A DNA stretch of 64,000 nucleotides from an uncultured Dehalococcoidia bacterium (GCA_913049785.1 CAJWXP010000007.1:7078-71077), one strand, 5' to 3'. Positions 17,899-36,724 are shown, counted from the stretch's first letter. A program made the numbers and translations. Notes: generated from the letters alone by a model not told the origin.

Positions 17899-18028
17899 GG
17901 TGCTCTCCCCCTATGTTTGTACTACTATCGATGGCCGAAACTCCACGGAAAAGACTCCGCTGGTAATATCTTCGGCGGCAAAAATGCTACTGCCTTGGGC
18001 CTGCGAGGTCAAGTGCCACAGATGGATA

Positions 18029-19111: not shown

Positions 19112-19146
19112 GTGTCTCTCCCGTTTTTTCAAGGAATGCGGTGCTG

Positions 19147-20436
19147 TCAGCCTTCAATGACTGTCTCAGATGCGCTCTTCGGCTGTTCTCTACCAAGGTT
19201 TCGAACAACTTTATCTCGGCCAAGCACGGAGAGGGCTATGACACAGGCAATTGTGCCGCCGATGGCCACGGCTGCGGACGCGCCGATACCGCTTGCCAGA
19301 GCCCCTACCTGCATCTGGCCCATAGGTTGTGCAAGAGTGTAGGTCATACCCCAGATGCCCATGACGCGACCACGGTACTCGTTCGGCACCTCTGAGTGGA
19401 GGATGCTCTGCCCGATAACGGTGAACATCTCGTTGCCCGCGGCGGACAACCACTCCATCGCCAGGAGTAGGGCGTACCAGGGGGACAGAGCGAAGACGAT
19501 GACCGATCCTCCAAATGCCAGTGCGCTTCCCAGCAGGATGCGACCTTTGCTCCGAGTACTGCCTATCGAGCCACCGACAATTGCGCCAGTCAACCCGCCG
19601 ATGCCTCCTGCAGCGAAGATGTAGCCAATGGCCGACCCCGATGCTTCTCCCATCAACTCTTTAGCGAACACTGGGACAAGGATGATGTGGGAGCCTGCGA
19701 AAAAGGCGTTCATCAGGCTTGTGCCGATGATGACCCTGAATATCCGGTTGTTGCGTACGTACTTGATGCCGTCTTTCAGGTTCTCAATCCCAGAAGCGCC
19801 CTGTGCTCGCTGTATCTCTTTGGGCCGTGTCCGGTACACCATGAAGCTGTAGAAGAAGGTGCCCACAGAGACCATGTACAACACCACGCCAGCGCCCTGC
19901 AACGGAATTCCCAGGTGGTCAATGAGCAGGCCCGCAAACACCGGGGCGAAGATGCGCGCTCCTGGATGGATGGCCGAGTTCAGCCCAACGGCGCTCGACA
20001 TATGTTGATGGTCGATCAAGCTGGGGAAGAAGGCCTGCCTCGACGCTTGCTGGAAGGACTGGACAGCTCCGATGCCGAACACGATAGCTAACACCTGCCA
20101 GACTACGATGTTCTCCGTAAATGTGAGCGTGGCAAAGAGGGCCCAGAGGAAACCGTTGATGGTGATGGTGATCATCAACAACCGTCGCTGGCTTACCTTG
20201 TCGGCCATGATGCCGCCGAGGAGGCCAAGGAACACCGCAGGTGCGGCGCGGGCCAGGCCCAGCAACCCGAGTGATAGCGCTGAACCTGTCAGGTCAAAAA
20301 TCAACCACGCCTGAACCGTGATGGCCATCTGCTGACCGATGACAGACGCGAAGTTCCCAGACCAGTACAGCCGGAAGTCCCGGTGCTGCAATGCCTGGGT
20401 GATGGCGAGTTTTTGGCCTATGTTGTTTATGATCAT
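19147..20436 (-). CDS. MFS transporter (MFS_3/EntS-like)
   Basis: 429 aa. RDFRLYWSGNFASVIGQQM N-terminus and about 12 TM segments. Confidence 0.7.
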   Translation of the reverse strand: MIINNIGQKLAITQALQHRDFRLYWSGNFASVIGQQMAITVQAWLIFDLTGSALSLGLLGLARAAPAVFLGLLGGIMADKVSQRRLLMITITINGFLWALFATLTFTENIVVWQVLAIVFGIGAVQSFQQASRQAFFPSLIDHQHMSSAVGLNSAIHPGARIFAPVFAGLLIDHLGIPLQGAGVVLYMVSVGTFFYSFMVYRTRPKEIQRAQGASGIENLKDGIKYVRNNRIFRVIIGTSLMNAFFAGSHIILVPVFAKELMGEASGSAIGYIFAAGGIGGLTGAIVGGSIGSTRSKGRILLGSALAFGGSVIVFALSPWYALLLAMEWLSAAGNEMFTVIGQSILHSEVPNEYRGRVMGIWGMTYTLAQPMGQMQVGALASGIGASAAVAIGGTIACVIALSVLGRDKVVRNLGREQPKSASETVIEG

Positions 20437-20555
20437 GGTAGGTACGGGTGTGCCTGATACAAGCCTTCTAGTGGAGTGAGAGCATCCTACGCCAATGGGG
20501 ATGTGTCCGTCTAGAAGCCCAAGGATTTGTTGAAGTTTCTGGCGCTGCGATGCAC

Positions 20556-20595
20556 GAAATCAATAGACCCCCTCATGAGGGGGTCTATTGATTTC
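20556..20595. terminator. Perfect 40-nt palindrome (20-bp stem) downstream of R1
   Basis: gaaatcaatagaccccctca followed by tgagggggtctattgatttc, which are exact reverse complements. Confidence 0.6.
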
Positions 20596-20639
20596 GCCAA
20601 CCGGGGTTACCAGCTGGCTCCTACCAAGCTACAGTCAAC

Positions 20640-21941
20640 CTAACTGCGCTCAGTTGCTATTACAGATGCTGTATTGATCACTGCCGGTACCGTGTCATTG
20701 AAAGAGATGCCACGATCCTGGAGCAGCGACACCGATCGCAACCGGTAATCAGAACCCTTTTCAGGAGTGAATGGGTCACCGCCCTCCATGATCTCTCTCG
20801 CACCTCTGAGATATATCCTTCGCAGGTTGATGATGGCGGAGTCCGATGTTCCCAGGTGCTCCTTGGTCCTATCACAGATGGCACCCATGCCTTCCTGGAT
20901 GCCCGCGTCCTGCACTGAGCCGTTTGCGATGCCCGTGAAGTTCACATTGCGTTGCATCTCACGGTCAATACCATAGTCGTTATCTTTATTGATGGTTGCC
21001 CGCAAGGTGCGGGGCTCCAGTTCAAGGTCGCTGGCGGGGTGGTTCTCGCCCTTGTTCAGAGGCCTGCTTGCGTTCCAGCTGTACGTGAACATCCAGCAGT
21101 TCTCGTCGTCTGCAGGAATCCATCCATGGCCGCTATACGTTAAGTCGTCGGGGTTACCGATGGAACCTGGAATGATCGTGAAGAATGGCATCATGAACGG
21201 GGTGATGCGCCAGTAGTATTCATCGTTCTCCGCGTCACGGTTTGCACCGTACACGAAGCCATAGTTGGTGTCCTGTACGACGAATCGAGGAGCGCTGTCA
21301 CCGATCATGGCGGTAGGCTGCATTGTCCCTCTCCGTACTGGACGCGCTTCCGGGTGGTCACGCTGATAGGGCGTCAGGCCGGAGTGAAGGAAGGAGACGT
21401 GGCTGGAATCGATCCCGCCTTCGATGCCCTGGACGTAGTTGTTCTCCTGAAGACGTCGCGATACCTTGCGGTGGCTGTCGGGCACCATGGCCCAACCCAC
21501 TTCCGGCAGGTCCGGCTGATGCTCCACGGGGCCCATGTACGCCCAAATGAAACCACCCCAGTCACGCGCCGGGTAAGACTTAATCTTAACCTTGTCCTTG
21601 AAGTTACTCTCGGAGGGCTCTGAAGGCATATCCACGCATTCGCCGTTCACGTCAAACTTCCAGCCGTGATAGACGCAGCGCAGTCCACACTCCTCATTGC
21701 GACCGAAGAACAAGCTGGCGCGGCGATGGGGGCAGTAGTTGTCCAGCAGGCCAACATCGCCGTTGGTGTCCCGGAACGCTACCAGTTCCTCATTAAGGAT
21801 CTTCACGCGCACCGGAGGGCTGTCTGGCTCTGCGATCTCGTCGGAACAGAGTGCCGGGATCCAGAATCTGCGCAGGTAGTCTCCCATAGGGGTACCGGGG
21901 CCTGTCCTGGTGATCATTTCATTATCGTTCTGGGTCAGCAT
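20640..21941 (-). CDS. Rieske [2Fe-2S] aromatic-ring-hydroxylating oxygenase, alpha-only phthalate-dioxygenase type (R1)
   Basis: 433 aa. Rieske motif CPHRRASLFFGRNEECGLRCVYHGWKF (CxH-x16-CxxH) and iron motif EGGIDSSHVSFLH. SD ggggagga. Confidence 0.9.
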   Translation of the reverse strand: MLTQNDNEMITRTGPGTPMGDYLRRFWIPALCSDEIAEPDSPPVRVKILNEELVAFRDTNGDVGLLDNYCPHRRASLFFGRNEECGLRCVYHGWKFDVNGECVDMPSEPSESNFKDKVKIKSYPARDWGGFIWAYMGPVEHQPDLPEVGWAMVPDSHRKVSRRLQENNYVQGIEGGIDSSHVSFLHSGLTPYQRDHPEARPVRRGTMQPTAMIGDSAPRFVVQDTNYGFVYGANRDAENDEYYWRITPFMMPFFTIIPGSIGNPDDLTYSGHGWIPADDENCWMFTYSWNASRPLNKGENHPASDLELEPRTLRATINKDNDYGIDREMQRNVNFTGIANGSVQDAGIQEGMGAICDRTKEHLGTSDSAIINLRRIYLRGAREIMEGGDPFTPEKGSDYRLRSVSLLQDRGISFNDTVPAVINTASVIATERS

Positions 21942-21965
21942 GTGTCCTCCCCATATTTGTTGATT

Positions 21966-22001
21966 CTCGTAGGCTGATAGCAGTCACTATCAGCCTACGA
22001 G
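21966..22001. terminator. Hairpin between S2 and R1
   Basis: CTCGTAGGCTGATAG-cagtca-CTATCAGCCTACGAG, a perfect 15-bp stem. Confidence 0.55.
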
Positions 22002-22006
22002 CGAGG

Positions 22007-23788
22007 TTACTTCTTGGCAACCTGGATGTTACCGAAGTGACTCCAAAGGCCGGAGACGTTGCCGGGCCATACCCAACTTTCCACGAACTCCGGGTTCAAG
22101 ACGATCTGCGGTGGGAGCCAGAAGAGGTTGATCGCTATATGAAGCGGGTGGGCGATGTCGCCTAGCTGCCGCAGCAGTGCGTCTTGCTCTGTTGCATCCA
22201 TCTTGCTCTGAAGATCCTTGATCAGGTCTTTAAGGAACAGAGGCTCAAACCCGCCGCCCCTGGGCGTGATATTGGCGTGGTGGACCCGCGTGCTCTGGAC
22301 ATCAAAGGAGGCGGTGGACGTCAGGCCTATCCAGTTCTTCAGCTTCAGCGCCCTGGACCGAGGTCGGTGGGCGGCCGAATCGGGGGCCTCGAGTTTCGGC
22401 TTGACGCCTATGTCCTGCAACATCCCCGCGATGGCCTCCATTGTGTCAGCCGCCGCGGCAAAGGAAGCCACGTTACTGACGTTAACGACGATTTCCAAGG
22501 GGTTGTTGGGACCGTAGCCAGCCTCTGCCAATAGTGTCCGAGCCGCCGCCGGGTCATAGCCGTATTCCTCTGGATAGGCGGCTTTCCATGCCGGGTTGAA
22601 AGCAGGGCTGGACTCGGGGATGGCCTGGATGATCATGTTCTGGCCCGCCCCGCGGAGGAATGCTTCGTTCAGCGCGTCCTTGTTGACCGCTTTGTTAAAG
22701 GCCTTCCGCACCTTTGCGTTTAGCCAGGGTGAGTCGCAGTGGACGTACCCACAGGGGGTGTTTTGCGCTTTATAGCTGCGGTCCGTTGAGTCGATGTAGC
22801 CTCCCTGGAACGCTCCGAAGATCCTCGCGCCCTGCTGGGTGCCCTGTGAAACGACCATTCCTTCATTGGAGGCCAACTCGGTGCTATCTGCCCCCAACTG
22901 GGTGATGTGGATCTCGTCCGTCAGAAGCCCTGCCAATCGGGTGGATTCCTCGTTCATCCACCGGATGGTCAGCTTGCTGAATTCCGGGTTATAGCGCCAG
23001 TGGTCGTAGTCCACTCGCTCGAACTGGATGTCCGTTTGCTGGTCACGGCTGACGAACTGCCAGGGAGAAGTGCCCGCCGTGGGCGCAGTGGTCATCATGG
23101 GCGGTCCTGAAGCCGCGTAGTCCGCAGCGCCCATGATCTCCATGCCACCGACCTGCGCGGAGAGCCTCCTCATCTGCTCTGCCAGTGGGCCTGGGAGCTG
23201 CCAGATGAACTCCAGGTCGCTGACCGCTTCGATGGTAACCGTCTTGTAGTTCCGTTGGTGGGTATGCGACGAGTCCTCGGCGCCAAACTCGCCTACGGTG
23301 AGGGCCACGTCTCTGTAGGAGAGCTCTGAGCCGTCATGGAAGCGAACTCCGTCCCGCAGCTTGATGCGTATATCAGAACCGTTCGGCTCCACGGACCACT
23401 CCGTGGCCAGCTGCGGTATCAATGCCCCAGTATTGGGATCCGTACCAATCAAGTACTCGTACATGGGTACCAATTGGATCTGCGACTGCGGAGACAGCCC
23501 TCTGCCGACGTTGTTAGACAGCAGCGAGGGTAACTGCGCCCCAATGATGACCTTATCCGTCACCGGAGTCATTGCTGCTGGCATCGCTGCGGCAGCTGCT
23601 GTTGGTGCAGGCACCGCTGCTACTGAAGTAGCTGCCGGTGCCGAAGGAGCCTGTGTGGCCGCTGCCGGTGCGCCTACGTTGGTATCGTCATCCTCATCCC
23701 CGTCGCTGGAACAGGCGGTTACCAACACCAACGCCATGACCAAAACCATTGGCCAGACTATGAACTTCAACGCTAGTCGATTTGGCAT
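22007..23788 (-). CDS. ABC transporter substrate-binding lipoprotein, family 5 (S2)
   Basis: Trimmed to ATG 23788 (MPNRLALKFIVWPMVLVMALVLVTACSS), with gggggaggaag SD. Linker: APAAATQAPSAPAATSVAAVPAPTAAAAAMPAA. 593 aa. Confidence 0.8.
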   Translation of the reverse strand: MPNRLALKFIVWPMVLVMALVLVTACSSDGDEDDDTNVGAPAAATQAPSAPAATSVAAVPAPTAAAAAMPAAMTPVTDKVIIGAQLPSLLSNNVGRGLSPQSQIQLVPMYEYLIGTDPNTGALIPQLATEWSVEPNGSDIRIKLRDGVRFHDGSELSYRDVALTVGEFGAEDSSHTHQRNYKTVTIEAVSDLEFIWQLPGPLAEQMRRLSAQVGGMEIMGAADYAASGPPMMTTAPTAGTSPWQFVSRDQQTDIQFERVDYDHWRYNPEFSKLTIRWMNEESTRLAGLLTDEIHITQLGADSTELASNEGMVVSQGTQQGARIFGAFQGGYIDSTDRSYKAQNTPCGYVHCDSPWLNAKVRKAFNKAVNKDALNEAFLRGAGQNMIIQAIPESSPAFNPAWKAAYPEEYGYDPAAARTLLAEAGYGPNNPLEIVVNVSNVASFAAAADTMEAIAGMLQDIGVKPKLEAPDSAAHRPRSRALKLKNWIGLTSTASFDVQSTRVHHANITPRGGGFEPLFLKDLIKDLQSKMDATEQDALLRQLGDIAHPLHIAINLFWLPPQIVLNPEFVESWVWPGNVSGLWSHFGNIQVAKK

Positions 23789-23858
23789 GTCTTCCTCCCC
23801 CTTGTTTTGTTCTATGAGCACCTCTGACCACTACCCTGAGAAAGCTGCTTAGATGTCC

Positions 23859-24047
23859 TTAAGTCCTAACACCTGCTCGCTTGCCTGCTTCCAGATAGGC
23901 TTCTCCCAGGGTCATGAACACCATTGACTTCTCGCCTTTGAACTGAATAGTGTACTGAAGCGGCTGATTCGACTCGTAAAGTTCGAATATCTCCGCATCC
24001 CCGTTGGGGCCAGATACGACTTCTACTTTGGTTGCTTCTACTGCCAT
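23859..24047 (-). CDS. Small hypothetical protein (62 aa)
   Basis: ATG 24047 is preceded by gaggagaagg. It lies between R2 and S2 on the same strand. I recognise no family for MAVEATKVEVVSGPNGDAEIFELYESNQPLQYTIQFKGEKSMVFMTLGEAYLEAGKRAGVRT. Confidence 0.45.
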   Translation of the reverse strand: MAVEATKVEVVSGPNGDAEIFELYESNQPLQYTIQFKGEKSMVFMTLGEAYLEAGKRAGVRT

Positions 24048-24139
24048 CGCGCCTTCTCCTCGGTTGTTCCAGGCTCCAGAATGACGTTGTCACCCTCCCC
24101 GAGGAGCCAGACGGTACACCAAGCCTGTATAACTTCTAG

Positions 24140-25471
24140 CTAACCAGCTGGTTGTTCTTCTTCTGAAAGGGCTCCCCATTGCAGATCTTGAGTCGCCTCG
24201 ATCCCGTTGATACCGTTGGGTAACAGCGTTGAAACCGAGCGCACTTTGTAGAGCTCAGGATCATCCACTGCAGGCGGTGGCGTTCCGTCTTCACGGAATG
24301 CCAGGGCATGCTTCACCAGCAACCGTCGCATCCGGATGATACCGGTGTCGGTTACCGCCAAGTGCTCCTGTTCACGCTTGTAGATCACGCCCATGCTCTC
24401 TGTCATGCCGTTGTCCTGACCACGGCCAGGGAGGCCGCTCCAGCCAAGACCACCGACTTTAGCGCGCTGGGCATCACGGTCTATCAAGTAGTCGTTCTCT
24501 CGGACGCCAGCAATCTTGAATCGGTCGTACCAGCCGGTTCCGTTGTATGACGCGTTCAAATGGAAGGAAGTAGGCAGGCCATCGACTATTTTCGGGCCGC
24601 CAAAGCCTGGCCGCGGGGGCTCAGAACTTGAACGGATGCTCACGTGCCATCGCATGCAGTTCTGATCATCCATGGGCACTACAGCGATGAAAGACTTCTC
24701 TCTGAAACTGGCAGGGATCATTGCATAGAAGGGGAAGAGGAAGTGGGCGATGCGCCAGTAGGTGGAATCCTCTTCCGCCGGGCGGTTGTTGCCTGATGTG
24801 CAGCCGAACTCCGTGTCTGTAACGAAGTGCCGCGCCCAACGGGTCTTCAGTGCATAGCGCTCAAACGTTACGTCTGTTGCTTCGTCAATCTCTTCAGGTT
24901 GGCGGGCACCCGCGTGGAGCCAACTGACGTGGCTTGTATCGTAGTCTCCTTCTAAGGACTGCATCCAGTTGCACTCAGAGTAGTACGCACTGATGGTGTA
25001 CTCCCCCTCAGGCTGCATGTTGGCTACCAGCGAGGGTAGTGGCGGCGGCTCGCTGCGGGCTCCCATATACACCCAAATGAGGCCACCCCGCTCCTGTACC
25101 TGATAGGTGACCGTCCTGACTTTCTCCAAGTACCTGCTCTCCGGCGGCTCTGAAGGCATATCGACGCAGTGACCGTCGGTGTCGAACTTCCAGCCGTGAT
25201 AGACGCATCGAAGACCTTCCTCTTCATTGCGGCCATAGAACAGCGAGGCACCACGATGGGGGCAGGAATTGCCGACGACGCCGATCTTTCCCGATGTCGC
25301 ACGAAAGGCGATCAGGTCTTCGCCAAGGAGTTTCAAACGTACGGGGTCACAGTCAGGCGCTGGCAACTCGTCTGATGTCATAGCTGGCATCCAGTACTCA
25401 CGCATCAGGTCACCCATGACGGTGCCAGGGCCAACTCGCGTTAAAATCTCGTTCTCTTCTTTGCTCAGCAT
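24140..25471 (-). CDS. Rieske oxygenase alpha-only type (R2)
   Basis: 443 aa. CPHRGASLFYGRNEEEGLRCVYHGWKF and EGDYDTSHVSWLH. SD gaggagg. Confidence 0.9.
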   Translation of the reverse strand: MLSKEENEILTRVGPGTVMGDLMREYWMPAMTSDELPAPDCDPVRLKLLGEDLIAFRATSGKIGVVGNSCPHRGASLFYGRNEEEGLRCVYHGWKFDTDGHCVDMPSEPPESRYLEKVRTVTYQVQERGGLIWVYMGARSEPPPLPSLVANMQPEGEYTISAYYSECNWMQSLEGDYDTSHVSWLHAGARQPEEIDEATDVTFERYALKTRWARHFVTDTEFGCTSGNNRPAEEDSTYWRIAHFLFPFYAMIPASFREKSFIAVVPMDDQNCMRWHVSIRSSSEPPRPGFGGPKIVDGLPTSFHLNASYNGTGWYDRFKIAGVRENDYLIDRDAQRAKVGGLGWSGLPGRGQDNGMTESMGVIYKREQEHLAVTDTGIIRMRRLLVKHALAFREDGTPPPAVDDPELYKVRSVSTLLPNGINGIEATQDLQWGALSEEEQPAG

Positions 25472-25565
25472 CCCCTATTCCTCCTCAATTTCTCCGTCCA
25501 CCGAGAAATCCACGATTGATTCGCGGGCATATTGTATGAAGTTCCGCGTGGCGTCAACGCCTTGA

Positions 25566-26846
25566 TTACACTGCTGGGGAGTACCCTTCTCCTTCAAACA
25601 ACGCCTCATGTAAGGCGTCCTGCCACCTGACATTCTCAGGCAGCACACGTTCAATGGCGCGGATCCCGTAGTACGTGCCAGCTACGCCTGGAGGGCTCCC
25701 GCCGTCTTCAACGATCTTGGCAGCCTCCAGCAGCATGCGACGTGCAGAGATGATGGCTCGGTCTGTTGTGGCCAGGTGTTCATGGGACCTGTCGTACTGG
25801 ATGCCCATGGACTCCTGAATGGCCCTGTCCTGCAGGTTTGCGGCACTCTCAATGCCTGTGTAGGTCTTGGTTCGCTGCACTTCTCGGTCGATTCCGTAGT
25901 CATTGTCGCGGTTCCAGATGCATCGGAAGCCATTCTCCACATCGATGTACTTGTAGACCTCCGGGCCGTGCTTGGACCGTAGCTCATCGCTGAGGGGTTC
26001 CGGAGCCAGCGTGTACGTCCAGTTGTAGACCATGCAGTTGTCGTCATCCATAGGCACCCACATGTGTCCGGCCACCATCGGCGGTGAATCGCCTCGACCT
26101 ACGGTGTTCTGGTTTGGCCGTAGCTGGGTGAAGGGCATGACGTAGTGGTATGCGCGGACAAAGTTGCCGTCCAGGTCAGGCACAGGACGAACCGAACCGT
26201 AAGTGTAGCCATAGTCCGTAGGCTCAACTTCAATGTGGGCAACGGTTGCACGCTGTTCATAGCGAGCGGCGTTGGTGATGTCATTGTTATGAAGATAGGT
26301 AGCGTGGATGGAATCAATGCCACCCTCAAGTGCCTGGGACCAGTTGCCCTCCTGCTTCACTTTGGTGACGCCTCTGTGCGTGTCCGGCACCTGTGTCCAC
26401 TCGAACTTGGGTGGGGGAGGCTGCTTGTCCGGCGGCCCCATGTATGTCCAGATGACGCCGCCCATATCCAGGCACGGATATGAGGTTATTTTGACCTTGT
26501 CCTTGAAGTTGCTCTCAGCGGGCTCGCTGGGCATGTCGACACAGTTGCCGTTCACATCGAACTTCCAGCCGTGGTACACGCAGCGCAGTCCGCATTCCTC
26601 GTTCCGACCGAAGAACAGGCTGGCGCGACGGTGGGGGCAGTAGTTATCAACTAAGCCGATATTGCCATCGGTGTCCTTGAACGCGATGAGTTCCTCACCA
26701 ACTAGCTTGACGCGGACGGGCGTGCAGTCAGGCTCCTCCAACTCCCAGGAAAGCAATGCTGGCAGCCAGTAACGCCGCATCACCTCTCCCATAGGCGTTC
26801 CGGGCCCGGTGTGGACGATGATCTCGTTCTCTTCTCTGTTCAGCAT
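25566..26846 (-). CDS. Rieske oxygenase alpha-only type (R3)
   Basis: 426 aa. CPHRRASLFFGRNEECGLRCVYHGWKF and EGGIDSIHATYLH. Confidence 0.9.
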   Translation of the reverse strand: MLNREENEIIVHTGPGTPMGEVMRRYWLPALLSWELEEPDCTPVRVKLVGEELIAFKDTDGNIGLVDNYCPHRRASLFFGRNEECGLRCVYHGWKFDVNGNCVDMPSEPAESNFKDKVKITSYPCLDMGGVIWTYMGPPDKQPPPPKFEWTQVPDTHRGVTKVKQEGNWSQALEGGIDSIHATYLHNNDITNAARYEQRATVAHIEVEPTDYGYTYGSVRPVPDLDGNFVRAYHYVMPFTQLRPNQNTVGRGDSPPMVAGHMWVPMDDDNCMVYNWTYTLAPEPLSDELRSKHGPEVYKYIDVENGFRCIWNRDNDYGIDREVQRTKTYTGIESAANLQDRAIQESMGIQYDRSHEHLATTDRAIISARRMLLEAAKIVEDGGSPPGVAGTYYGIRAIERVLPENVRWQDALHEALFEGEGYSPAV

Positions 26847-26886
26847 TGAACTCCCCTTCCCCCACTTTTGCTAAAAGACGTTGTTG

Positions 26887-28146
26887 CTAGGCCGCTCCGA
26901 CAGCCACCTTCTCTGTGGTCTCCTCAAATGTGACCTTTTTATCCATCACATCGGCGACGGAACGGACGCGGTAGGCCGAGCCCTTCATGGGCACGAAGGG
27001 CTCTTTGCCCTCCAACAGGTCTCGACAGCCCTGTAGGTACATCCGACGCATGGCGATGACCGCCGAGTCCGATGTTCCCAGGTGTTCCTTGGTCCTGTCA
27101 CAGATGGTGCCCATACTCTCCTGGATGCCTGAGTCCTGCACGGAGATGGCCTCTATACCGGTAAAGGTCTTGGTGCGTTGCACTTCACGGTCTATGCCGT
27201 AGTCGTTGTCCTTGTTCATGACAGCGCGCATGGTGCGAGGCTCCTTCTCAAGGAAGCTGGCCCCGTGGCCCTCTCCCTCGTTCAGGGGCCTGCTGGTGTT
27301 CCAGCTATAGGTAAACATCCAGCAACTCTCATCATCGGCGGGCACCCAACCGTGACCGCTGTATGTGCGCTCGTCAGGGTTGCCTGAGCCGCCGGGGATC
27401 ACCGTGAAGAAAGGGAGCATGAAGGGGGTCAGACGCCAGTAGTAGGAGTCGTTCTCCGCTTCACGATTGGCTCCGTACACAAACCCATAGTCCGTGGTCT
27501 TCACAATGAAGTGGGGCGCGGTGTCTTTATTACTGAGGGAGTGGCCAGCGCGGGCAGGGTCGTCCCGTACAACCGGCGGAAGACCGAAGTGCAGGAAGGA
27601 GATGTGGCTGGAATCTATGCCACCCTCAATGCCCTGCACGAAGTTGTTCTCCTGCAACCGACGGGAGACTTTGCGATGGCTCTCTGGCACCATTGCCCAG
27701 CCGACCTCCGGGAGTTCCGGCATTGACTCTGCTGGTCCCATGTACGCCCAGATGTAGCCGCCCCAGTCTTCAGCCGGGTACGCCTTGATCTTCACTTTGT
27801 CCTTGAAGTTGCTCTCTGCGGGCTCGCTGGGCATGTCCACGCAATCGCCCTTGGTGTCAAACTTCCAGCCGTGGTAGACGCACCGCAGGCCGCATTCTTC
27901 GTTGCGACCAAAGAACAAGCTGGCGCGACGGTGTGGGCAGAAGTTATCGATAATACCAACGTCGCCGTTGGTGTCGCGGAAGGCGATGAGTTCCTCGTTG
28001 AGGATCTTGACCCGTACCGGCGGGCTGTCAGGTTCAGCGATCTCTTCAGACAGCAAGGCCGGCATCCAGAACCGCCGAAGATACTCACCCATCGGAGTGC
28101 CGGGGCCTGTCCTGGTGATCATCTCATTGTCTTGCGCGCTCAGCAT
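26887..28146 (-). CDS. Rieske oxygenase alpha-only type (R4)
   Basis: 419 aa. It has the same Rieske motif and EGGIDSSHISFLH. It is close to R1 and R10. Confidence 0.9.
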   Translation of the reverse strand: MLSAQDNEMITRTGPGTPMGEYLRRFWMPALLSEEIAEPDSPPVRVKILNEELIAFRDTNGDVGIIDNFCPHRRASLFFGRNEECGLRCVYHGWKFDTKGDCVDMPSEPAESNFKDKVKIKAYPAEDWGGYIWAYMGPAESMPELPEVGWAMVPESHRKVSRRLQENNFVQGIEGGIDSSHISFLHFGLPPVVRDDPARAGHSLSNKDTAPHFIVKTTDYGFVYGANREAENDSYYWRLTPFMLPFFTVIPGGSGNPDERTYSGHGWVPADDESCWMFTYSWNTSRPLNEGEGHGASFLEKEPRTMRAVMNKDNDYGIDREVQRTKTFTGIEAISVQDSGIQESMGTICDRTKEHLGTSDSAVIAMRRMYLQGCRDLLEGKEPFVPMKGSAYRVRSVADVMDKKVTFEETTEKVAVGAA

Positions 28147-28200
28147 GTATGCCCTTCCTGTGTGTCCATTTTGTGAAACGACGATGCGGGGCGTTAATAC

Positions 28201-29490
28201 CTACTCCATGATTGGCGAGTATTCGGCGCCCTCAAACAGCAGGTCTTTCATACCCTCCTGCCACGGGACATTAACGGGTAACACCCGCTGGATGGATCTG
28301 ACTTTGTAGTACGAGGGTCCGGTGCCTCTTGGGGTGCCGCCGTCACCAACGACGTTAGCAGCCTCTTGAAGCATGCGGCGTGTGGCGATGATCGCACGGT
28401 CCGTAGTCGCAAGGTGCTCTCGGGTACGGTCAACAATCGTCCCCATGGATTCCTGTATGCCACGGTCTTGGAGATTGGCGCCCACGCGAGCATCGGCAAG
28501 GATGCCAGTGAAGGTCTGAGTGCGCTGCACTTCTCGATCGATGCCGTAATCGTTGTCGGCGTTCCAGATGCATCGGAACCCGTTGTTGATATCGATGACC
28601 TCATAGGCCAGGTCAGAGTGCTTGGCCTTGTCTGCCTCCGTCAACGGCTCATCGCCCAGGGAATACACGAAGTTCCAGACGAAGTGGTGCTCATCGTCTA
28701 TGGGCACCCACATGTGTCCGGCTACCTTGGGGGATGAACTGCTCTCACGACGGTCGTCAGGGCGAAGCTGTGTGAAGGGCATGATGAACTGGTACGCCCG
28801 AACGAAGTTGCCCTCCTCCTTGGAGAGGTGTCTGACAGAGCCGTAGGCATAGCCGTAGTCGGTCGGCTCCACCTCAATACTGGGTGCAGCAGAGCGGGAT
28901 TCGAATCGGGAAGTGTTGGTGATGTCGTTGTTGTGGAGGTAGGAAGCGTGGACGGAATCAACGCCCCCCTCCAGGCCCTGCAGCCAGTTGCTCTCCTGAA
29001 GGACTTTGTTCACAGCCCGGTGGGTTTCCACTACCTGAGTCCACTCAAACAGTGGTGGTGGCGGCTGGTTCTCCAGCGTGCCCATGTACGTCCAGACCAC
29101 ACCGCCCATGTCCATACAGGGGTATGCAAGCACTTTGACTTTGTCCTTGAAGTTGCTTTCTGCGGGCTCGCTGGGCATGTCTACACAGTTGCCTTCAACG
29201 TCAAACTTCCAGCCGTGGTAAACGCAGCGCAGGCCGCATTCTTCGTTCCTGCCGAAGAACAGGCTTGCCCGACGATGGGGGCAGTAATTATCGATGAGGC
29301 CTATCTTGCCATCGGTGTCTTTGAAGGCGATAAGCTCCTCGCCCAGCAGCTTCACCCGAACCGGTGTGCCATCTGGTTCTGCTACTTCCCATGATAGGAG
29401 GGCCGGAATCCAGTATCGCCGCATCAACTCCCCCATAGGAGTGCCGGGTCCTGTTTGGGTGACATGCTGGTTATCCTGAGCGTTGAGCAA
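28201..29490 (-). CDS. Rieske oxygenase alpha-only type (R5)
   Basis: 429 aa. It starts at TTG (29490-29488), preceded by ggaggaag. It has the same Rieske motif and EGGVDSVHASYLH. It is close to R3. Confidence 0.88.
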   Translation of the reverse strand: MLNAQDNQHVTQTGPGTPMGELMRRYWIPALLSWEVAEPDGTPVRVKLLGEELIAFKDTDGKIGLIDNYCPHRRASLFFGRNEECGLRCVYHGWKFDVEGNCVDMPSEPAESNFKDKVKVLAYPCMDMGGVVWTYMGTLENQPPPPLFEWTQVVETHRAVNKVLQESNWLQGLEGGVDSVHASYLHNNDITNTSRFESRSAAPSIEVEPTDYGYAYGSVRHLSKEEGNFVRAYQFIMPFTQLRPDDRRESSSSPKVAGHMWVPIDDEHHFVWNFVYSLGDEPLTEADKAKHSDLAYEVIDINNGFRCIWNADNDYGIDREVQRTQTFTGILADARVGANLQDRGIQESMGTIVDRTREHLATTDRAIIATRRMLQEAANVVGDGGTPRGTGPSYYKVRSIQRVLPVNVPWQEGMKDLLFEGAEYSPIME

Positions 29491-29534
29491 AATCTTCCTC
29501 CATCATCTCTGCTAGGTTCTGGAGACTCAATACG

Positions 29535-30827
29535 TTACCCGCCGACAGGCTGATCCTCCGGATACATCTCCGGCAGTAGGACATCCCGCCAGGCCAGCGC
29601 ACCATCGAATACCTTCTCTATTGCGCGGACGTTGTAGTAGGACGTGGTGTCAGCGCCTCTGGGCGTTCCACCCTCTGCGACGTCTCGCGTGGCTTCGATG
29701 AGCAGTTTGCGAGTGGCGATGATCGCCGCGTCCGCGGGCCCAAGGTGCTCACGCGTGCGATCTACCACGGTGCCCATGCTTTCCTGCACGCCACGGTCCT
29801 GGGCGTTGATCCCATCTATGCCGGTGAACGTGTCTGTCCGCTGGACATCGCGGTCGATCAGCCAGTTGTTGCGGACGTTGCCCTTGGCCCTGTACTGGTT
29901 ATCGGGGTCTACGTTGGGCCAGGCATTGGCAGAGCCCTCCTGGGTCCGTTCCTTCTCTGTAAGCGGCTTCTCCCCAAAGCTGTAAGTCCAGTTCCAGACC
30001 ATGACGTTGTCGTCGTCGATGGGTACCCAGTGGTGTCCATCGACGTGGGTGCGATCAGGCTCTCCGGCACGGCCGATCTGGCTTGGTCGAAGCTGCGTGA
30101 AGGGCATGGCGAAGTGATAGCCACGCACGTACTGTTCTTTATCGCCAAGTGGTCGGATGCCTGTGTACCGATAGCCGTAGTCAGTGACGTCAACTTCAAG
30201 CTTGGGAGCGCCGCCTCGGACGAAGGGCGTGGACATCTGAATGCCAGCGCTCTTCGCGTTCTCTCGAATCTGTCGGTGGAGGATAGGTGCGTGAGAAGAA
30301 TCGATGCCGCCCTCAAGGGCCTGGAGCCAGTTGGACTCCTGCCAGACCTTGGTCACGCCGCGGTGCGTCTCCGGCACCCGTGTGTACTCAAAGTCGGGTA
30401 CGGGCGGGATCTTGTCTTTCGGGCCCATGTAGACCCAGATGATGTCCCCTGCCTCGTAGGTGGGGTATGCCTTAGCCTTGACCTTGTCTTTGAAATCGAT
30501 CGGTTCGTTCATCTGGTCGACGCAGTTGCCGTTCACATCGAACTTCCAACCGTGATAGACGCAACGAAGCCCGCTTTCCTCGTTGCGACCCAAGAATAGG
30601 GAAGCGAGTCTGTGCGGGCAATTCTCTTCAAGAATACCGATGTCACCGTTGGTGTCGCGGAACCCTACCAGGTCCTCGGCAAGGATGCGCAATCGGACGG
30701 GGTCACAGTCCGGATTCGGGAGTTCGGTTGAGAGCAACGCGGGCAGCCAATACCTCCGCATCGTTTCACCCATTGGTGTCCCAGCCCCAATCTTGGTTAC
30801 CAACGCGTTTTCTTCAGCAGTTAACAT
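29535..30827 (-). CDS. Rieske oxygenase alpha-only type (R6)
   Basis: 430 aa. CPHRLASLFLGRNEESGLRCVYHGWKF and EGGIDSSHAPILH. It is the first gene after the divergent LysR intergenic region. Confidence 0.9.
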   Translation of the reverse strand: MLTAEENALVTKIGAGTPMGETMRRYWLPALLSTELPNPDCDPVRLRILAEDLVGFRDTNGDIGILEENCPHRLASLFLGRNEESGLRCVYHGWKFDVNGNCVDQMNEPIDFKDKVKAKAYPTYEAGDIIWVYMGPKDKIPPVPDFEYTRVPETHRGVTKVWQESNWLQALEGGIDSSHAPILHRQIRENAKSAGIQMSTPFVRGGAPKLEVDVTDYGYRYTGIRPLGDKEQYVRGYHFAMPFTQLRPSQIGRAGEPDRTHVDGHHWVPIDDDNVMVWNWTYSFGEKPLTEKERTQEGSANAWPNVDPDNQYRAKGNVRNNWLIDRDVQRTDTFTGIDGINAQDRGVQESMGTVVDRTREHLGPADAAIIATRKLLIEATRDVAEGGTPRGADTTSYYNVRAIEKVFDGALAWRDVLLPEMYPEDQPVGG

Positions 30828-30907
30828 GGCTCTCCCCCTTCGTGTTTCTTCCCCTGAGTCCGCTCCACAATAGCTATATACCCGGTCTCAAATCGACTGG
30901 CAATCTT

Positions 30908-30958
30908 CCTTAGCGCAAAGATGCGCTAAGGAGATACAATTGTCAATGCATAAATTGT
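30908..30958. promoter_or_regulatory. Candidate operator sites in the R6/LysR divergent intergenic region
   Basis: There is a perfect dyad CCTTAGCGCA-aaga-TGCGCTAAGG at 30908-30931. Next to it is ACAATT-N11-AATTGT at 30936-30958, which contains the LysR-type T-N11-A arrangement. Confidence 0.4.
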
Positions 30959-31004
30959 GAACATATCCTTTCCAAAATGGAACAATGTGACGAGGGGTGA
31001 TGTG

Positions 31005-31883
31005 ATGCCTGAACTACCGGAATGGAGAGTATTCTGCGCTACGGCAAAGTTCCATAGTATCTCCAGGGCTGCAGAATCCCTTGGGATAGGGTCTCCAACA
31101 GCTACTAAGCAGATTACGAAGCTTGAAGAGCGACTTGGCGTGCAGCTTCTCGATAGGACGAGGCGGCCAGTTCAGCTTACGCCGATGGGTGAGCGATACG
31201 CCGCGCTGGCGTCACCGCTGGTAGAGGGTTTTGACAACATGGTGGGCTCCGTGGCGGCTGAGGGCACGAGCGACCCCGTAAGTGTCACTGCGCCTTCCGG
31301 GTTTATCAGTTACAAGCTGCCCGATGCGGTGAAGTTCTTTCAAGACGCATTCCCCCATAACCAGGTGAGGATATATTCACGTACGAAGTCGGAGGCCATC
31401 CGTATGCTGTCCGACGGCGATGTGGATATGGCCTTCGTCGACCCACAGGTGCCGCCGCACATTGATTTCCAGCCGCTCATCACATTTGAGCGGGTGCTCA
31501 TCGCCGCAAGAAATCACCCCCTGGCCCAGCAGTACGAAGCCACTATCGATGAGATCGCGCGCTACCCGCTGACGTTCCTCCGTGCGGGCACAACAACAAG
31601 GACCATGCTGGAAGCGGAAATGAAACGCCAGGAGATCCCCTATGAGGTCGGCATTGAGTTGGACCATATAGAGGCGGTAAAGCGCTACGTGTCGTTAGGC
31701 CTTGGGGTATCCGTGGTGCCGGAATTCATCGTTGAACCCAGAGACAGGGAAAGCCTGGCCATCATCCGCGTACAGGGCTCTTATGCTACCGAGCAGATAG
31801 GTGCCGCAACGCTACGGGAGAAGCCCCTCACAACGTCTGCAAGCAACTTCCTGATGGTGCTTCGACAGTCGGTGGGGCAATAG
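31005..31883 (+). CDS. LysR family transcriptional regulator
   Basis: Track ORF 30957..31883 trimmed to ATG 31005. Winged HTH: FHSISRAAESLGIGSPTATKQITKLEERLGVQLLDR. 292 aa, divergent from the R6-R2 array. Confidence 0.85.
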   Translation: MPELPEWRVFCATAKFHSISRAAESLGIGSPTATKQITKLEERLGVQLLDRTRRPVQLTPMGERYAALASPLVEGFDNMVGSVAAEGTSDPVSVTAPSGFISYKLPDAVKFFQDAFPHNQVRIYSRTKSEAIRMLSDGDVDMAFVDPQVPPHIDFQPLITFERVLIAARNHPLAQQYEATIDEIARYPLTFLRAGTTTRTMLEAEMKRQEIPYEVGIELDHIEAVKRYVSLGLGVSVVPEFIVEPRDRESLAIIRVQGSYATEQIGAATLREKPLTTSASNFLMVLRQSVGQ

Positions 31884-31889
31884 CTTTCA

Positions 31890-33200
31890 TTAAAGCTTCT
31901 GCGCAGGTAGTTGGGGTGGCCTGATGGCGACTGCGGCCAACGCTGCCAGTATCCACGTCCCAACGACCAACAGAAAAGGCACGGTGTACGAGCCGCTCCA
32001 GTCATGCATGGCTCCGATCATGAGGGGCGCCACAGCCCTGGTCCCGTTGGCGAAGGGTGTCATGAACCCTCGGATCGCGCCGATGTGGCCTCGCCCAAAA
32101 AACTCGGCGGTGGCCAGCGACTGGAGCATGAAGAACCCCGCCAGGTTGATGCCCTGGAACACTCCCCAGGCCACCATCATGACGGGATTGAAGATGAACA
32201 GCATGAAGATGACGCCCACAGTGGCCAGACACCCCTGCAGGATCATCATGGTGCGGATGTTGTATTTCCCCGCCAGATAACCCCAAACGAATCGCCCACC
32301 AACGTTGAAGAAGCCGTAGACCGCCACGCCGCTGGCAGCTACCTCCAGGCTGAAGCCCTTTTCCTGGAAGTAGGGTATCCAGTGGGCCTGGTACCCGGTG
32401 ATACCCACTACTGCCAGAGCCAATGCCAACGTCAGGATCCAGAAGGATTTGGAGCGAAGCGCCTCGCCTTTGGTGAAGCTGTATTCCTCAGCAACGGAGA
32501 CTTTTTGCGATGTGGGGGTTGTGGATGATGGTGCAGGTTTGGTGTCGGGCGTGTCGCCATCGGGAAGCATGCCCATGACTTCAGGGCTGGTTCTCGCCAT
32601 GAGTGACAGGGGGAGGACGATGATGAAGGTGGTGATCCCCAGCCAGAGCCAGGCGTCACGCCACCCCATGCTGCCGATGAGGAACGTGAGGAACAACGGG
32701 AAGATCAGCGGACCACTGGCTGCCCCGGCGTTGCTCCATGAGAGGGCCTTGGCGCGATTGCGCACGAACCACTTGATCGCCAGGGTCTGCCACATGCCAC
32801 TGCCCTGAGCTGCTACCCCAAGGGCGCCCAGGACGCCGTAGACCATGTAGTACTGGAACGGGGTTTCCACCCATCGAAGCAGGATGAACGAGAGAGCGAG
32901 GAAGATGCTGCCGATAGGTAGGATCACCTGCGGGGCCCAGGGGTGGTCGGCTAACGGACCAAGGATCGGCCCCATGAGACCGCCAAGTAGCACGCGTACG
33001 GACAGTGCTCCGAAGATGACGGTCTGACTCCACCCAAGGTCCGCTTGCATGACAGCTAGGAAGGTGCTTGTTGCGAACCCGGCGCTTCCCAGGTTGAATG
33101 CGCCGCTGATGGCCCCGGCTCCCACGATGATCCAGCCGTAGAAGAAGGGGAGCTTGGTCCGTGGTGAGCCCTTATCGTTCATGGCGGCAATTATAAACAC
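31890..33200 (-). CDS. MFS transporter (oxalate/formate-antiporter-like)
   Basis: 436 aa as tracked. The start is uncertain (GTG 33200 or ATG 33182), and neither has a clear SD. LPFFYGWIIVGAGAISGAF N-terminus and about 12 TM segments. Confidence 0.7.
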   Translation of the reverse strand: MFIIAAMNDKGSPRTKLPFFYGWIIVGAGAISGAFNLGSAGFATSTFLAVMQADLGWSQTVIFGALSVRVLLGGLMGPILGPLADHPWAPQVILPIGSIFLALSFILLRWVETPFQYYMVYGVLGALGVAAQGSGMWQTLAIKWFVRNRAKALSWSNAGAASGPLIFPLFLTFLIGSMGWRDAWLWLGITTFIIVLPLSLMARTSPEVMGMLPDGDTPDTKPAPSSTTPTSQKVSVAEEYSFTKGEALRSKSFWILTLALALAVVGITGYQAHWIPYFQEKGFSLEVAASGVAVYGFFNVGGRFVWGYLAGKYNIRTMMILQGCLATVGVIFMLFIFNPVMMVAWGVFQGINLAGFFMLQSLATAEFFGRGHIGAIRGFMTPFANGTRAVAPLMIGAMHDWSGSYTVPFLLVVGTWILAALAAVAIRPPQLPAQKL

Positions 33201-33236
33201 GTACTCGGGTTTCGTGCTTCGCCATCTTGTGAATGG

Positions 33237-34538
33237 CTATTTGGGGGATAACGTCGTATCGGGCTCTTTGGTTTTCGTTTCCGGCGCAAACAGAGCGATC
33301 AGGAGCGCGCTCACTCCCAGCCAGATTGCGACCAGGATGAATGCCCCACCAAAGCTCCACCATTGGGCCATCGCCCCAACCGCCAATGGCGCTACGAACC
33401 CTCCTGAAGCCTGGAAGAGCGACCATACTCCCAGGAATGCACCCCTTCCCTCTTTGGGTGCCAGGTCCATGGCATATACCTGCGATGTGCTCTGGCTCAT
33501 TCCCCATGCCAGGCCGTAGAGAAGCACCATCGCAAGGATGCCGATGTAGCTTTCGCTGATGCTTAGGAGGAACGCTGCTCCGGCCAGAAGGAAGAGACCC
33601 GGCACCAGGGAGAACTTCCTGCCATATTTATCGCTGAGCATCCCATTGGGGAAGGCCACGACCACGGCCACAATGCCCCCCATGCCGAGGAGCGTGCCGA
33701 TGCTTGTGGGGCTCAGGTCTGCAAGTTCCTGGGCGTACAAAGGCAGCAACGTCTGGAAGACACCCTGCCCCATCATGCTGACGGCAAAGGTCGCAAGGAC
33801 CAGGAACAGAAAGGGCTTGGTCTTGAACGGAGCGAGCTTACTCGAGATGGAACCCTGCTTCTTCTCAGGTGCATTCTGCGCTTTGGGTACGGCCTTTGGC
33901 TTGCTCTCCCCGATGAAGAAAAGAGCAACTGCAAGCGTTGCGACCTTGGTAACGCCGTTGAACAGGAAGATCGCCCTGAAATCAAAAAAGAGCAACAGCA
34001 TTCCGCCCATCAGCGGTCCAGCCACCTGCCCCAGCCGTTGAGACATCCCTCGAAGGGCGACGACGCGGCCACGGACTTCCTGGTCAGTGACATCGGCGAT
34101 GAGGATGTTGGCGCTGGTCATCCACATGGCGATGCCGATACCGCCGATGAACTCCAGCACGAAAAACTCGATGTAGCTATCGATGAACATTTCTATGAAT
34201 GCCGTGACAGCCCGCAGGCTTGCGCCGGTAATCATGAGGGGTTTGCGACCCCATTTATCGCTCATGAACCCTGTGATGGGAGATGCTACAAGGATTGCGA
34301 CAGCGTTGAAGGCCAGGATGAGGGTGACCAGGAAGATGTTCGGTTCCAGGGAGTATGCGAAGAGCGGCCGACCCAGGTTCTGAGCGCCGCCGCCCGCACC
34401 CCAAAAGAAAAATGCAACAAAGATCGGCACAGTGCGTTTGGTAAGGATGCCGGGTTTGGTTGTTTGTTCCTGTTCAGGGGTACTCAAAGTAGGCAGAGTA
34501 TACCGTTGGTTGCTTGGCCTGTCGCTAGACCCGTGCAC
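33237..34538 (-). CDS. MFS transporter
   Basis: Track ORF 33237..34595 trimmed to GTG 34538, which is preceded by ggagggaga. It has the sugar-porter-like motif MSDKWGRKPLM. 433 aa. Confidence 0.7.
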   Translation of the reverse strand: MHGSSDRPSNQRYTLPTLSTPEQEQTTKPGILTKRTVPIFVAFFFWGAGGGAQNLGRPLFAYSLEPNIFLVTLILAFNAVAILVASPITGFMSDKWGRKPLMITGASLRAVTAFIEMFIDSYIEFFVLEFIGGIGIAMWMTSANILIADVTDQEVRGRVVALRGMSQRLGQVAGPLMGGMLLLFFDFRAIFLFNGVTKVATLAVALFFIGESKPKAVPKAQNAPEKKQGSISSKLAPFKTKPFLFLVLATFAVSMMGQGVFQTLLPLYAQELADLSPTSIGTLLGMGGIVAVVVAFPNGMLSDKYGRKFSLVPGLFLLAGAAFLLSISESYIGILAMVLLYGLAWGMSQSTSQVYAMDLAPKEGRGAFLGVWSLFQASGGFVAPLAVGAMAQWWSFGGAFILVAIWLGVSALLIALFAPETKTKEPDTTLSPK

Positions 34539-35441: not shown

Positions 35442-36197
35442 TCAATCCAGTGCCCTCCGTCGGGTCCGAAAGACTTTGACGAAGATAGAAACAAGTTGTG
35501 TATAAGTGCCCTTGCCACCAAGTAAGTCCCAAAACTCTCTGCCAACAAGGACTTCCTTTCCATCGTAGTCAAGGTATTTGCTGCCAGCCCGGTGTTGCTT
35601 CTTAGGCTCCGGATTGTACGGAAAGACGGCGATCGTTTGTACTACGTCTGGGAGCCTGAGTGTCTTGATTTCGAGCAGCTTGGCTTTTATTGATCGAGCC
35701 TGCTCGGAGTTCGGTTGGGGGGTCTTCATATAAAAGTAGTATTCGCTGCCATTGATGTTAACGAAAAGATCAAGAGTTACATCATCTGCTGTTGTCTGCT
35801 CTAATCCCTCGACTGACCGTTTACGCAGGATGGCATATTCCCGCGAGACGTTCGGGGCTGACGTCTTCCTCTTTGCAGTGACCTTTTCGATATAGTTCCG
35901 GGCGGCAAAGGGCATCCGGCCCGCTACATGGACATCAGTCTCTGCGCTATAACCGTTGCTCCGGGCGATATCGGCGGCGATCTCCTGATACTGTATCCCT
36001 GTGCTCCCAGATAAGGACCTTTCAATCCTGCTCGCCCGTAAAACCCGTTTCGGTAAACCGGAAAAAAAGGGGTTTCTCCGGCTGCTCTTACCTTTTCGGG
36101 AGTTCTGGATGGTCTCGTCTAGTTTCTCCAGAATTTCTTTCTCAACTCTCCTTCGGAGCTTGGGAGAATTCCGGAGGACAGATCCTCGCCCGGGCAT
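35442..36197 (-). CDS. TdeIII-like type II restriction endonuclease (orphan)
   Basis: Trimmed to ATG 36197, with gaggaggtg SD. The segments IERSLSGSTG, SEYYFYMKTPQPNSEQ, VFPYNP and VLVGREFWDLLGGKGTYTQLVSIF match my recollection of the RE_TdeIII family. It is lower in GC than its flanks. 251 aa. Confidence 0.55.
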   Translation of the reverse strand: MPGRGSVLRNSPKLRRRVEKEILEKLDETIQNSRKGKSSRRNPFFSGLPKRVLRASRIERSLSGSTGIQYQEIAADIARSNGYSAETDVHVAGRMPFAARNYIEKVTAKRKTSAPNVSREYAILRKRSVEGLEQTTADDVTLDLFVNINGSEYYFYMKTPQPNSEQARSIKAKLLEIKTLRLPDVVQTIAVFPYNPEPKKQHRAGSKYLDYDGKEVLVGREFWDLLGGKGTYTQLVSIFVKVFRTRRRALD

Positions 36198-36724
36198 GGC
36201 ATGCACCTCCTCACTTCCACACAACTGTATCGGCCTAGGCCGGCATGACATTGCGAACCCTAACACAGACGTGCGGTTTGGTCACCGCATCCTGCGTTAG
36301 ATAGCTGAATATTTGGGCAACAAATCCAATTACAACTTGCGATCGATTAAATTCCCCTTGTTGGCACATCAAAAGGGAATCTTTACGGAGAGAATTGATT
36401 CAGGCAATTTCCAGCTTGGGACCACAGACAGCACTTTCGGAGAAGCAAGACTCGGTCGGTGCCCTCAGAATCTCCTGGGGTATGCCCTGAACCCGTTCCC
36501 TATGTGGCCTAGGGTGGCTGCGGATGACCACCGGCAGTATTTGGCCTGCCGTCATAGCTCATGGAACCCATAACGCCCTCTCGTTGAGTGCCTTCAACGA
36601 TCTGACATCGCAGACGAGCGATGCTCCCTAATCAAAGAATTGACGCACGCATCAGACTGGACCATCATCCCGTTGGCAATCGTGCCGACTTGATGCGGAA
36701 GAACATTAGCGGACACGGCCCGCC

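Follow-up and report, generated by a model that had tools for sequence, protein, structure and literature searches.

Chloroflexota of the SAR202 group abound in the ocean, where they are believed to use expanded oxygenase families for the oxidation of recalcitrant or terrestrial dissolved organic matter; to our knowledge, no oxygenase of these families has a known substrate. Here we describe an array of five consecutive Rieske oxygenase genes, R2 to R6, at positions 24140-30827 of a 64,000-nucleotide stretch from an uncultured Dehalococcoidia bacterium (GCA_913049785.1, CAJWXP010000007.1:7078-71077). This whole stretch is hereafter called the window, and positions are counted from its first letter. 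An earlier note, generated by a model from the DNA alone, had described the array as an oxygenase battery, possibly one transcription unit under a divergent LysR regulator. We find that the array genes are real, intact, functional and conserved, and we consider it reasonably probable that they encode a battery of oxygenases that act independently as alpha3 or alpha3alpha3 particles, each on a different carboxylated aromatic or dissolved-organic-matter substrate, and that would share uptake, regulation and an unlinked reductase.

The expansion of such genes has been described at the genome level. The available text of Saw et al. (2020, PMC6946804) gives 1-62 alpha-subunit copies for ring-hydroxylating dioxygenases (RHDs) per SAR202 genome and few beta subunits; most of these alpha subunits are annotated as phthalate 4,5-dioxygenase, and the authors think phthalates unlikely as substrates. 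The corresponding text of Colatriano et al. (2018, PMC6123686) lists 30 ring-demethylating monooxygenases and 10 RHDs in the Arctic metagenome-assembled genome (MAG) SAR202-VII-2. The role proposed for the expansions in these portions of the literature is a wider range of oxidisable aromatic or recalcitrant dissolved organic matter. The window is like the published cases (PMC6946804, PMC6123686), as far as their available text describes them, in the phylum and class of its host and in its many PDO-like alpha paralogues. Both papers report copies per genome and, in the text searched, no tandem arrays; a literature search for tandem Rieske arrays in Chloroflexi returned nothing specific.

Among characterised enzymes, isophthalate dioxygenase (IPDO, 9INA/9IOY) and phthalate dioxygenase (PDO, 7FJL/7V25) of Comamonas testosteroni KF1 share with the window proteins the domain pair, the fold, the metal ligands, the bridging Asp and the carboxylate Arg, and are likewise beta-less. 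They differ in PDO S182 and R207 and IPDO V178, H257 and F333, which are not kept across the window paralogues, and in gene context: in Comamonas each enzyme has a single gene and a cognate reductase to work with (PMC12445078), whereas the window holds five to six oxygenase genes and no reductase. The caffeine N-demethylases NdmA/NdmB are co-encoded Rieske alpha paralogues of differing regiospecificity that share one reductase and form alpha3alpha'3 (PMC12445004), but they belong to another subfamily (E about 1e-17 to R4, in the Rieske domain only), number two paralogues and have a known reductase, NdmD. LigXa, the 5,5'-dehydrodivanillate O-demethylase oxygenase after which PF19301 is named, resembles the ten Rieske paralogues of the window at the level of the Pfam family only. 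LigXa is served by a separate ferredoxin, LigXc, and a ferredoxin reductase, LigXd; unlike the LigXa system, the window has no LigXc/LigXd-like ferredoxin or reductase genes.

Integrity and divergence of the array genes

All five genes lie on the minus strand and encode Rieske oxygenase alpha subunits: R6 (29535-30827, 430 amino acids (aa)), R5 (28201-29490, 429 aa, TTG start), R4 (26887-28146, 419 aa), R3 (25566-26846, 426 aa) and R2 (24140-25471, 443 aa). Read from R2 to R6, the intergenic gaps measure 94, 40, 54 and 44 bp, in exact agreement with the lengths and gaps given in the earlier note. The TTG start of R5 is also found in the R5 orthologue, and a Shine-Dalgarno-like purine-rich stretch stands 5-10 nt 5' of each gene (GGGGGAG, GGAGG, GGAAGG, GGGGGAAGGGGAG and GAGGAGG). 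The CxH-x16-CxxH and D-x2-H-x4-H motifs are present in all five proteins. What had been said of each gene's Shine-Dalgarno stretch, Rieske and iron motifs and N-terminus thus held throughout, as did the statement that nothing else lies between the genes: reductase, dehydrogenase and ring-cleavage genes are all absent inside the array.

The open reading frame (ORF) listing and Pfam place five further paralogues in the window, R1 (20640-21941), R7 (36725-38083), R8 (38409-39797), R9 (45896-47170) and R10 (51848-53125), so that Rieske genes make up about 20% of its 64 kb. All ten proteins match Rieske PF00355 and LigXa_C PF19301 above the gathering scores, LigXa_C with 76-160 bits against a cut-off of 27, which agrees with the earlier count of ten.

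The array members are old paralogues. Pairwise identity within the array ranges from 38 to 69% (R3 and R5, 69%), and R4 is closest to two genes outside it, R1 (74%) and R10 (76%). In a bootstrapped neighbour-joining tree, clades A (R6, R5 and R3), B (R4, R1 and R10) and C (R2, the most divergent member) each received 100% support, as did R3 with R5. Furthermore, R5 and R3 branch outside the R6 group, which holds a homologue from SAR202 OSU_TB62, indicating that their origin is old. The alignment and tree proposed in the earlier note reveal three old, interleaved clades and no lost metal ligands. At the DNA level, the best tract shared between copies is 86% identical over 207 nt, and no long near-identical tract was found. 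Recent tandem amplification or gene conversion was rejected on the identity range, this best tract, the kin of R4 outside the array and the fully supported clades.

Compared with their orthologues on metagenome contig L001, the array genes show dN/dS values of 0.084 (R6), 0.033 (R5), 0.030 (R4), 0.020 (R3) and 0.044 (R2) at dS of 0.43-0.83, which indicates strong purifying selection on every copy. The ORF listing contains no frameshifts or internal stops in these genes. Ten paralogues in 64 kb with no adjacent partner reductase might be taken for redundant or decaying duplicates, kept by chance and without functional differentiation. However, the intact ligands, the dN/dS of 0.02-0.08, the 38-69% identity and the clade-specific pocket residues kept in orthologues make this explanation scarcely credible; decay as such is excluded by ligand integrity and dN/dS, in line with the earlier view of diverged paralogues rather than fresh or decaying copies.

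Protein family and predicted pockets

The nearest solved structures by sequence are IPDO 9INA/9IOY, a Cupriavidus Rieske oxygenase (RO-CH34, 7FHR) and PDO 7FJL. The best PDB match of R4 is IPDO 9INA (E 1.5e-99), and R2 matches the nearest structures at E 5e-80. An AlphaFold2 model of R2 (pLDDT 85.5) gave TM-scores of 0.82 to 9INA and 7FHR and of 0.75-0.82 to PDO, with structural alignments to IPDO/PDO at 30-36% identity only; likeness in fold is thus by model for R2 and by sequence alone for the remaining paralogues. R2 carries a specific insert of about 24 residues (289-312) that is predicted to be disordered.

Residues were mapped by aligning the paralogues with IPDO, PDO and 7FHR, and their roles were taken from PMC12445078. 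The Rieske ligands C70/H72/C89/H92 are present in all ten paralogues and align with IPDO C69/H71/C88/H91; no variation occurs in the columns of the bridging Asp (IPDO D174), of the iron ligands H177, H182 and D337 or of the carboxylate-binding Arg (IPDO R234 = PDO R244). Other pocket positions, read from well-aligned blocks, vary by clade. The equivalent of IPDO V178 is V or I in clades B and C and A in clade A, while that of I246 is I in clades B and C and Arg in clade A. The H257 and G172 equivalents are H and G in clades A and B, with I and D, respectively, in R2. The F333 equivalent is I in R4/R6, A in R3/R5, a gap in R2 and G in R1/R10, the clade B members outside the array.

The clade-specific G172, V178, I246, H257 and F333 equivalents are identical in orthologues of about 80% identity. 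Pocket residues that are specific to a paralogue and conserved in its orthologues fit functionally diverged paralogues. The earlier note had named essentially identical pockets as an outcome that would speak against its proposal; the predicted pockets instead differ between paralogues, with alignment positions that vary by clade. In addition, the invariant carboxylate-anchoring Arg narrows the search for substrates to carboxylated compounds. A strict identity with PDO or IPDO was considered and rejected: out of PDO S182, R207 and R244 and IPDO T175, V178, R234, H257 and F333, only the Arg is kept.

Conservation of the array in relatives

A protein 97% identical to R4 (P0001) is encoded on 13 or more contigs, which come from several metagenomes. 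Six of these were examined (L001-L006) and carry the same five genes in the same order, with lengths of 431/429/419/426/443 aa. On the 3' side of the array, all six continue with a 62-aa ORF and then with genes for an SBP_bac_5 protein, a sixth Rieske oxygenase, an MFS transporter and an arylsulfotransferase-like protein; on the 5' side, where the contig extends (L001-L005), there are a LysR gene and two MFS genes. Contig L001 is collinear with window positions 17047-34503 at 84% DNA identity, and collinearity across the contigs overall spans 14-17 kb.

At a greater distance, the array is shorter. The nearest species representatives, a Dehalococcoidia MAG chromosome (OZ252245.1, L010) and the Chloroflexota MAG RHO3_bin_79 (L036), both at about 80% identity, have three genes instead of five, as do contigs L009 and L090. 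In L010 and L036, the two for which identities were computed, the three genes are orthologues of R6 (76%; L010a, L036a), R4 (80-81%; L010b, L036b) and R2 (79-80%; L010c, L036c). R5 and R3 are absent from the three-gene arrays and were either gained in the lineage of the window or lost in the other. The downstream module of L009, L010 and L090 comprises a 61-aa ORF, SBP genes and the R1 orthologue (81% for L010d), and SRP54, not LysR, lies upstream of the arrays in L009 and L090.

We also surveyed 80 loci of related genomes, taking in each a homologue and as much as 10 kb to either side of it. A single copy was found in 68, a pair in 10, a triplet in two and a longer run in none, and in this census five genes in a row occur only in the window's own lineage. 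The five-gene arrangement is far beyond chance. It is nevertheless less exceptional than the earlier note implied, as PDO-like expansions of SAR202 are already described in the available text of PMC6946804 and PMC6123686, and pairs and triplets are common in relatives. Compared with what that text contains, the new elements are the run of five genes, the way in which it grew from a version with three (should R5 and R3 have been gained), the module of the 62-aa ORF, SBP gene and R1, and the comparison of pockets. Homologues of the window's formate-tetrahydrofolate (THF) ligase lie in Chloroflexota (85-86%), a SAR202 cluster (77%) and Dehalococcoidia (77%), and by these similarities, together with its nearest species representatives, the host is a SAR202-like member of the Chloroflexota/Dehalococcoidia.

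The conserved order invites another explanation, the main rival to independent enzymes: the paralogues could act successively on one complex substrate, for example in O-demethylations or hydroxylations of a polymethoxylated aromatic acid derived from lignin or humic matter. Lineages with 84% DNA identity keep the gene order strictly, the catalytic domain takes its Pfam name from the O-demethylase LigXa, and the available text of PMC6123686 has 30 "ring-demethylating monooxygenases" annotated in a related MAG. C1 genes are found nearby (formate-THF ligase, 15344-16966; MetE-like, 7389-8540), and an S-methyltransferase adjoins the syntenic block in L001. On the other hand, the nearest solved homologues are cis-dihydroxylating dioxygenases, a formaldehyde-handling gene was not found in the window, and relatives manage with three of the five genes or, in 68 of the 80 loci, with a lone copy, which is better explained by independent modules. 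Based on these findings, we regard a sequential pathway as unlikely.

The dS values to L001 are uneven along the block, at 0.43-0.50 for R2-R5, 0.83 for R6 and 1.0-1.7 for the 62-aa ORF and the SBP, R1, MFS and arylsulfotransferase-like (ASST) genes. The unevenness may stem from recombination between lineages in the core of the array, or from codon constraint that is stronger there.

Transcription unit and control region

A promoter and terminator scan revealed no terminator-like sites on the coding strand within the array, and the four junctions are no more stable when folded than shuffled sequence (z -1.3 to +0.2). The consensus promoter and terminator sites listed by the scan were no more numerous than in shuffled sequence. 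The first terminator-like site 3' of the array is an 18-bp GC-rich hairpin followed by UUU, located after R1 on the minus strand (20556-20595; z -7.1). The most economical unit is probably R6-R5-R4-R3-R2-s62-SBP-R1, where s62 denotes the gene of the 62-aa ORF, ending at this terminator-like hairpin.

Within the 94-bp gap between R3 and R2, we noticed a promoter-like motif, TTGACG-15 nt-TACAAT (25531-25557, minus strand), as a candidate internal promoter. It is kept in L001 as TTGATG...TACAAT, and its 15-nt spacer is below the consensus, hence it was missed by the scan. Identity to L001 is 83% for this junction, close to the 85% of the main control region, against 62-76% for the three short junctions. 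The single transcription unit considered in the earlier note fits the lack of junction terminators, but its limits shift: the unit would extend past 24140 to R1, and with a promoter-like motif before R2 one transcript is not assured.

Another hairpin, strong and 16 bp long but with no U-tract, is located between R1 and the SBP gene (21966-22001, minus strand; dG -31 kcal/mol, z -7.6), and its stem is kept in L001 via changed bases. It could serve as an mRNA-stabilising or processing element that uncouples SBP from R1 levels.

Divergent from R6, on the plus strand, is a gene for a LysR-type regulator (31005-31883; Pfam HTH_1 and LysR_substrate). Its ORF is listed from a GTG at 30957, but the ATG at 31005, conserved in L001, is the likelier start; with this start, the control region between LysR and R6 (30828-31004) measures 177 bp. 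It contains a perfect 10+10 bp palindrome, CCTTAGCGCA-AAGA-TGCGCTAAGG, at 30908-30931, with a core that is kept in L001 and occurs nowhere else in the window. Although it lacks the form of a canonical T-N11-A box, we consider it a candidate operator. The earlier proposal of one divergent LysR over the array is compatible with the divergent gene and the conserved palindrome, but only for the closest lineage, since relatives at about 80% identity have SRP54 in this place.

Electron supply, assembly and substrates

Partner genes were sought with Pfam in 43 ORFs apart from the ten paralogues (s62 and 42 ORFs that reach 180 aa) and with Cys-motif scans of small ORFs, in which partner matches were by chance or antisense only. 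A ring-hydroxylating beta-subunit domain was not found in the window ORFs of at least 180 aa, shorter ORFs elsewhere in the window not being Pfam-scanned; the 40-94 bp gaps of the array are too short for a beta-subunit gene. Near the 80 related loci, plausible full-length Fer2 reductase candidates were few (L061, L071) and belong to non-Chloroflexota genomes. As the window holds no partner gene, the electron donor would be encoded elsewhere and presumably shared. An Rfam scan of the whole window had no match.

We propose the following model. R2-R6, probably together with s62, the SBP_bac_5 lipoprotein and R1, would form a conserved catabolic gene block, which the divergent LysR protein probably turns on upon substrate or product. 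Each gene product is read as an alpha subunit in the phthalate family (PDO/IPDO/LigXa-type) of Rieske non-haem-iron oxygenases, which would work without a beta subunit and, to judge by solved homologues, would most likely self-assemble into alpha3 or stacked alpha3alpha3. Electrons, supplied by a reductase or ferredoxin encoded at another site, are expected to leave the Rieske cluster of one subunit and, through the bridging Asp, to reach the 2-His-1-Asp iron in the adjacent subunit. Each paralogue most probably hydroxylates or demethylates its own carboxylated aromatic compound, or some comparable component of dissolved organic matter; distinct substrates are suggested because the carboxylate-anchoring Arg is kept while other pocket positions differ. 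Uptake would proceed via the co-encoded binding protein and MFS transporters. Co-transcription, oligomeric state, substrates and electron donor are the parts of this model that we infer.

Several points weigh against this model. No reductase, plant-type or Rieske-type ferredoxin or FNR-like gene was found in the 64 kb, which touches the path of electrons. Homo-oligomeric assembly is assumed by analogy, having been taken over from homologues. The assignment of substrates is weakened by the NCBIfam equivalog models, none of which comes near its cut-off for the paralogues (filing the genes under any of them was rejected for this reason). It also depends on a pocket mapping made by sequence alignment, in which the stretches around L198, F249 and I294 are rich in gaps; we did not rely on these three unreliable positions. 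Finally, a second promoter at the R3-R2 junction, serving R2-s62-SBP-R1, is possible in view of the motif found there and could split the unit.

Alternatively, the paralogues may form mixed alpha3 or stacked alpha3alpha'3 assemblies with shared electron input and combinatorial or coupled activities. In favour of this are the tight linkage and probable co-transcription of the genes and the near-identity of the paralogues in the Rieske loop and the Asp/His interface motifs, and there are precedents in NdmA/NdmB alpha3alpha'3 and PDO alpha3alpha3 (PMC12445004). However, IPDO, as the nearest homologue, forms a simple homotrimer, alpha3 (PMC12445078), and with arrays of three as well as five genes and single copies dominating in relatives, no member appears to need a fixed partner. 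As three of the five genes constitute the complete array in relatives, obligate hetero-oligomers are unlikely, and we hold mixed assembly in general to be quite improbable. A bolder version, in which one LysR operon encodes six alpha subunits that co-assemble as mixed alpha3/alpha3alpha'3 and are served by a single unlinked reductase, with the lineage-restricted s62 as a new accessory or assembly factor for the R2-type enzyme, strikes us as very improbable. If true, it would represent a combinatorial oxygenase for the chemically heterogeneous dissolved organic matter of the sea.

We therefore return to the battery of independent oxygenases as the preferred reading. The locus is a local, operon-like case of the known SAR202 gene-family expansion, and the gain over earlier work is incremental. 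It offers a compact and conserved test set, with six co-directional oxygenases whose pockets are distinct, along with a regulator, its candidate operator and a binding protein; cloned whole, it could reveal whether breadth of specificity is what the expansions give.

The downstream module

The s62 gene (23859-24047, minus strand) encodes a conserved 62-aa protein without Cys. It stands between the R2-type gene and the SBP gene in every relative examined (L001-6, L009, L090, L091 and L092), has 24 of 62 columns invariant in 22 homologues and evolves under purifying selection, with a dN/dS of 0.077 against L001. Its homologues form 16 clusters at E<1e-3 among 1.84 billion representatives; a word-indexed search retrieved close relatives only, and no match was found in Pfam, PDB sequences or PDB folds. 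The structure is confidently predicted as beta3-alpha, with a pLDDT of 92. This conserved ORFan and the question of the missing reductase are the most original matters left by our analysis.

Next to s62 is the gene for the SBP_bac_5 solute-binding lipoprotein (22007-23821, minus strand; Pfam, lipobox LVTAC, start uncertain), which is syntenic in all relatives compared. R1 follows on the minus strand as the sixth co-directional paralogue (433 aa, clade B), with a dN/dS of 0.023 against L001. Further downstream, a 263-aa protein (17107-17898, minus strand) belongs to no Pfam family and gives faint PNPOx-like and SnoaL-like matches; it is syntenic in L001, L009 and L090.

Other features of the window

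Four paralogous SBP_bac_5 lipoproteins, which share 34-40% identity and all have a lipobox, are encoded on the minus strand of the window (5427-7247, 22007-23821, 47208-48929 and 55188-56879); despite these, no ABC permease or ATPase genes were found across the 64 kb. Two of the SBP_bac_5 genes lie directly upstream of R1 and R9, whereas a TPP-enzyme gene intervenes between R10 and a third one upstream of it.

R7 and R8 (36725-39797, minus strand) are a co-directional Rieske pair, 55% identical, joined with 98% bootstrap support and about 330-390 bp apart. Their listed ORFs are N-terminally extended, and the true starts are probably internal, at ML(S/T)..DNELLCRVGPGT. Close by, at 35442-36266 (minus strand), there is a gene for a TdeIII-type type II restriction endonuclease, located in a stretch whose GC content is lower, at about 0.53 against 0.58 in the array.

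A second old tandem array of paralogues, at 43443-45766 on the minus strand, consists of three consecutive genes with double RidA/L-PSP domains (250-252 aa, 29-32% identical). It is found downstream of R9 and an SBP gene and opposite a second LysR gene (49118-50032). A 73-nt direct repeat of 71% identity occurs upstream of R7 (38112-38184) and upstream of the RidA array (43211-43283), and may be a shared regulatory element or due to chance.

In the left flank, all on the minus strand, the MetE-like (Meth_synt_2) gene at 7389-8540 and the formate-THF ligase gene at 15344-16966 are accompanied by two luciferase-like monooxygenase genes (9179-10252 and 13078-13938). These are flavin/F420 monooxygenase family and C1 genes, which are reported as expanded or typical in SAR202.

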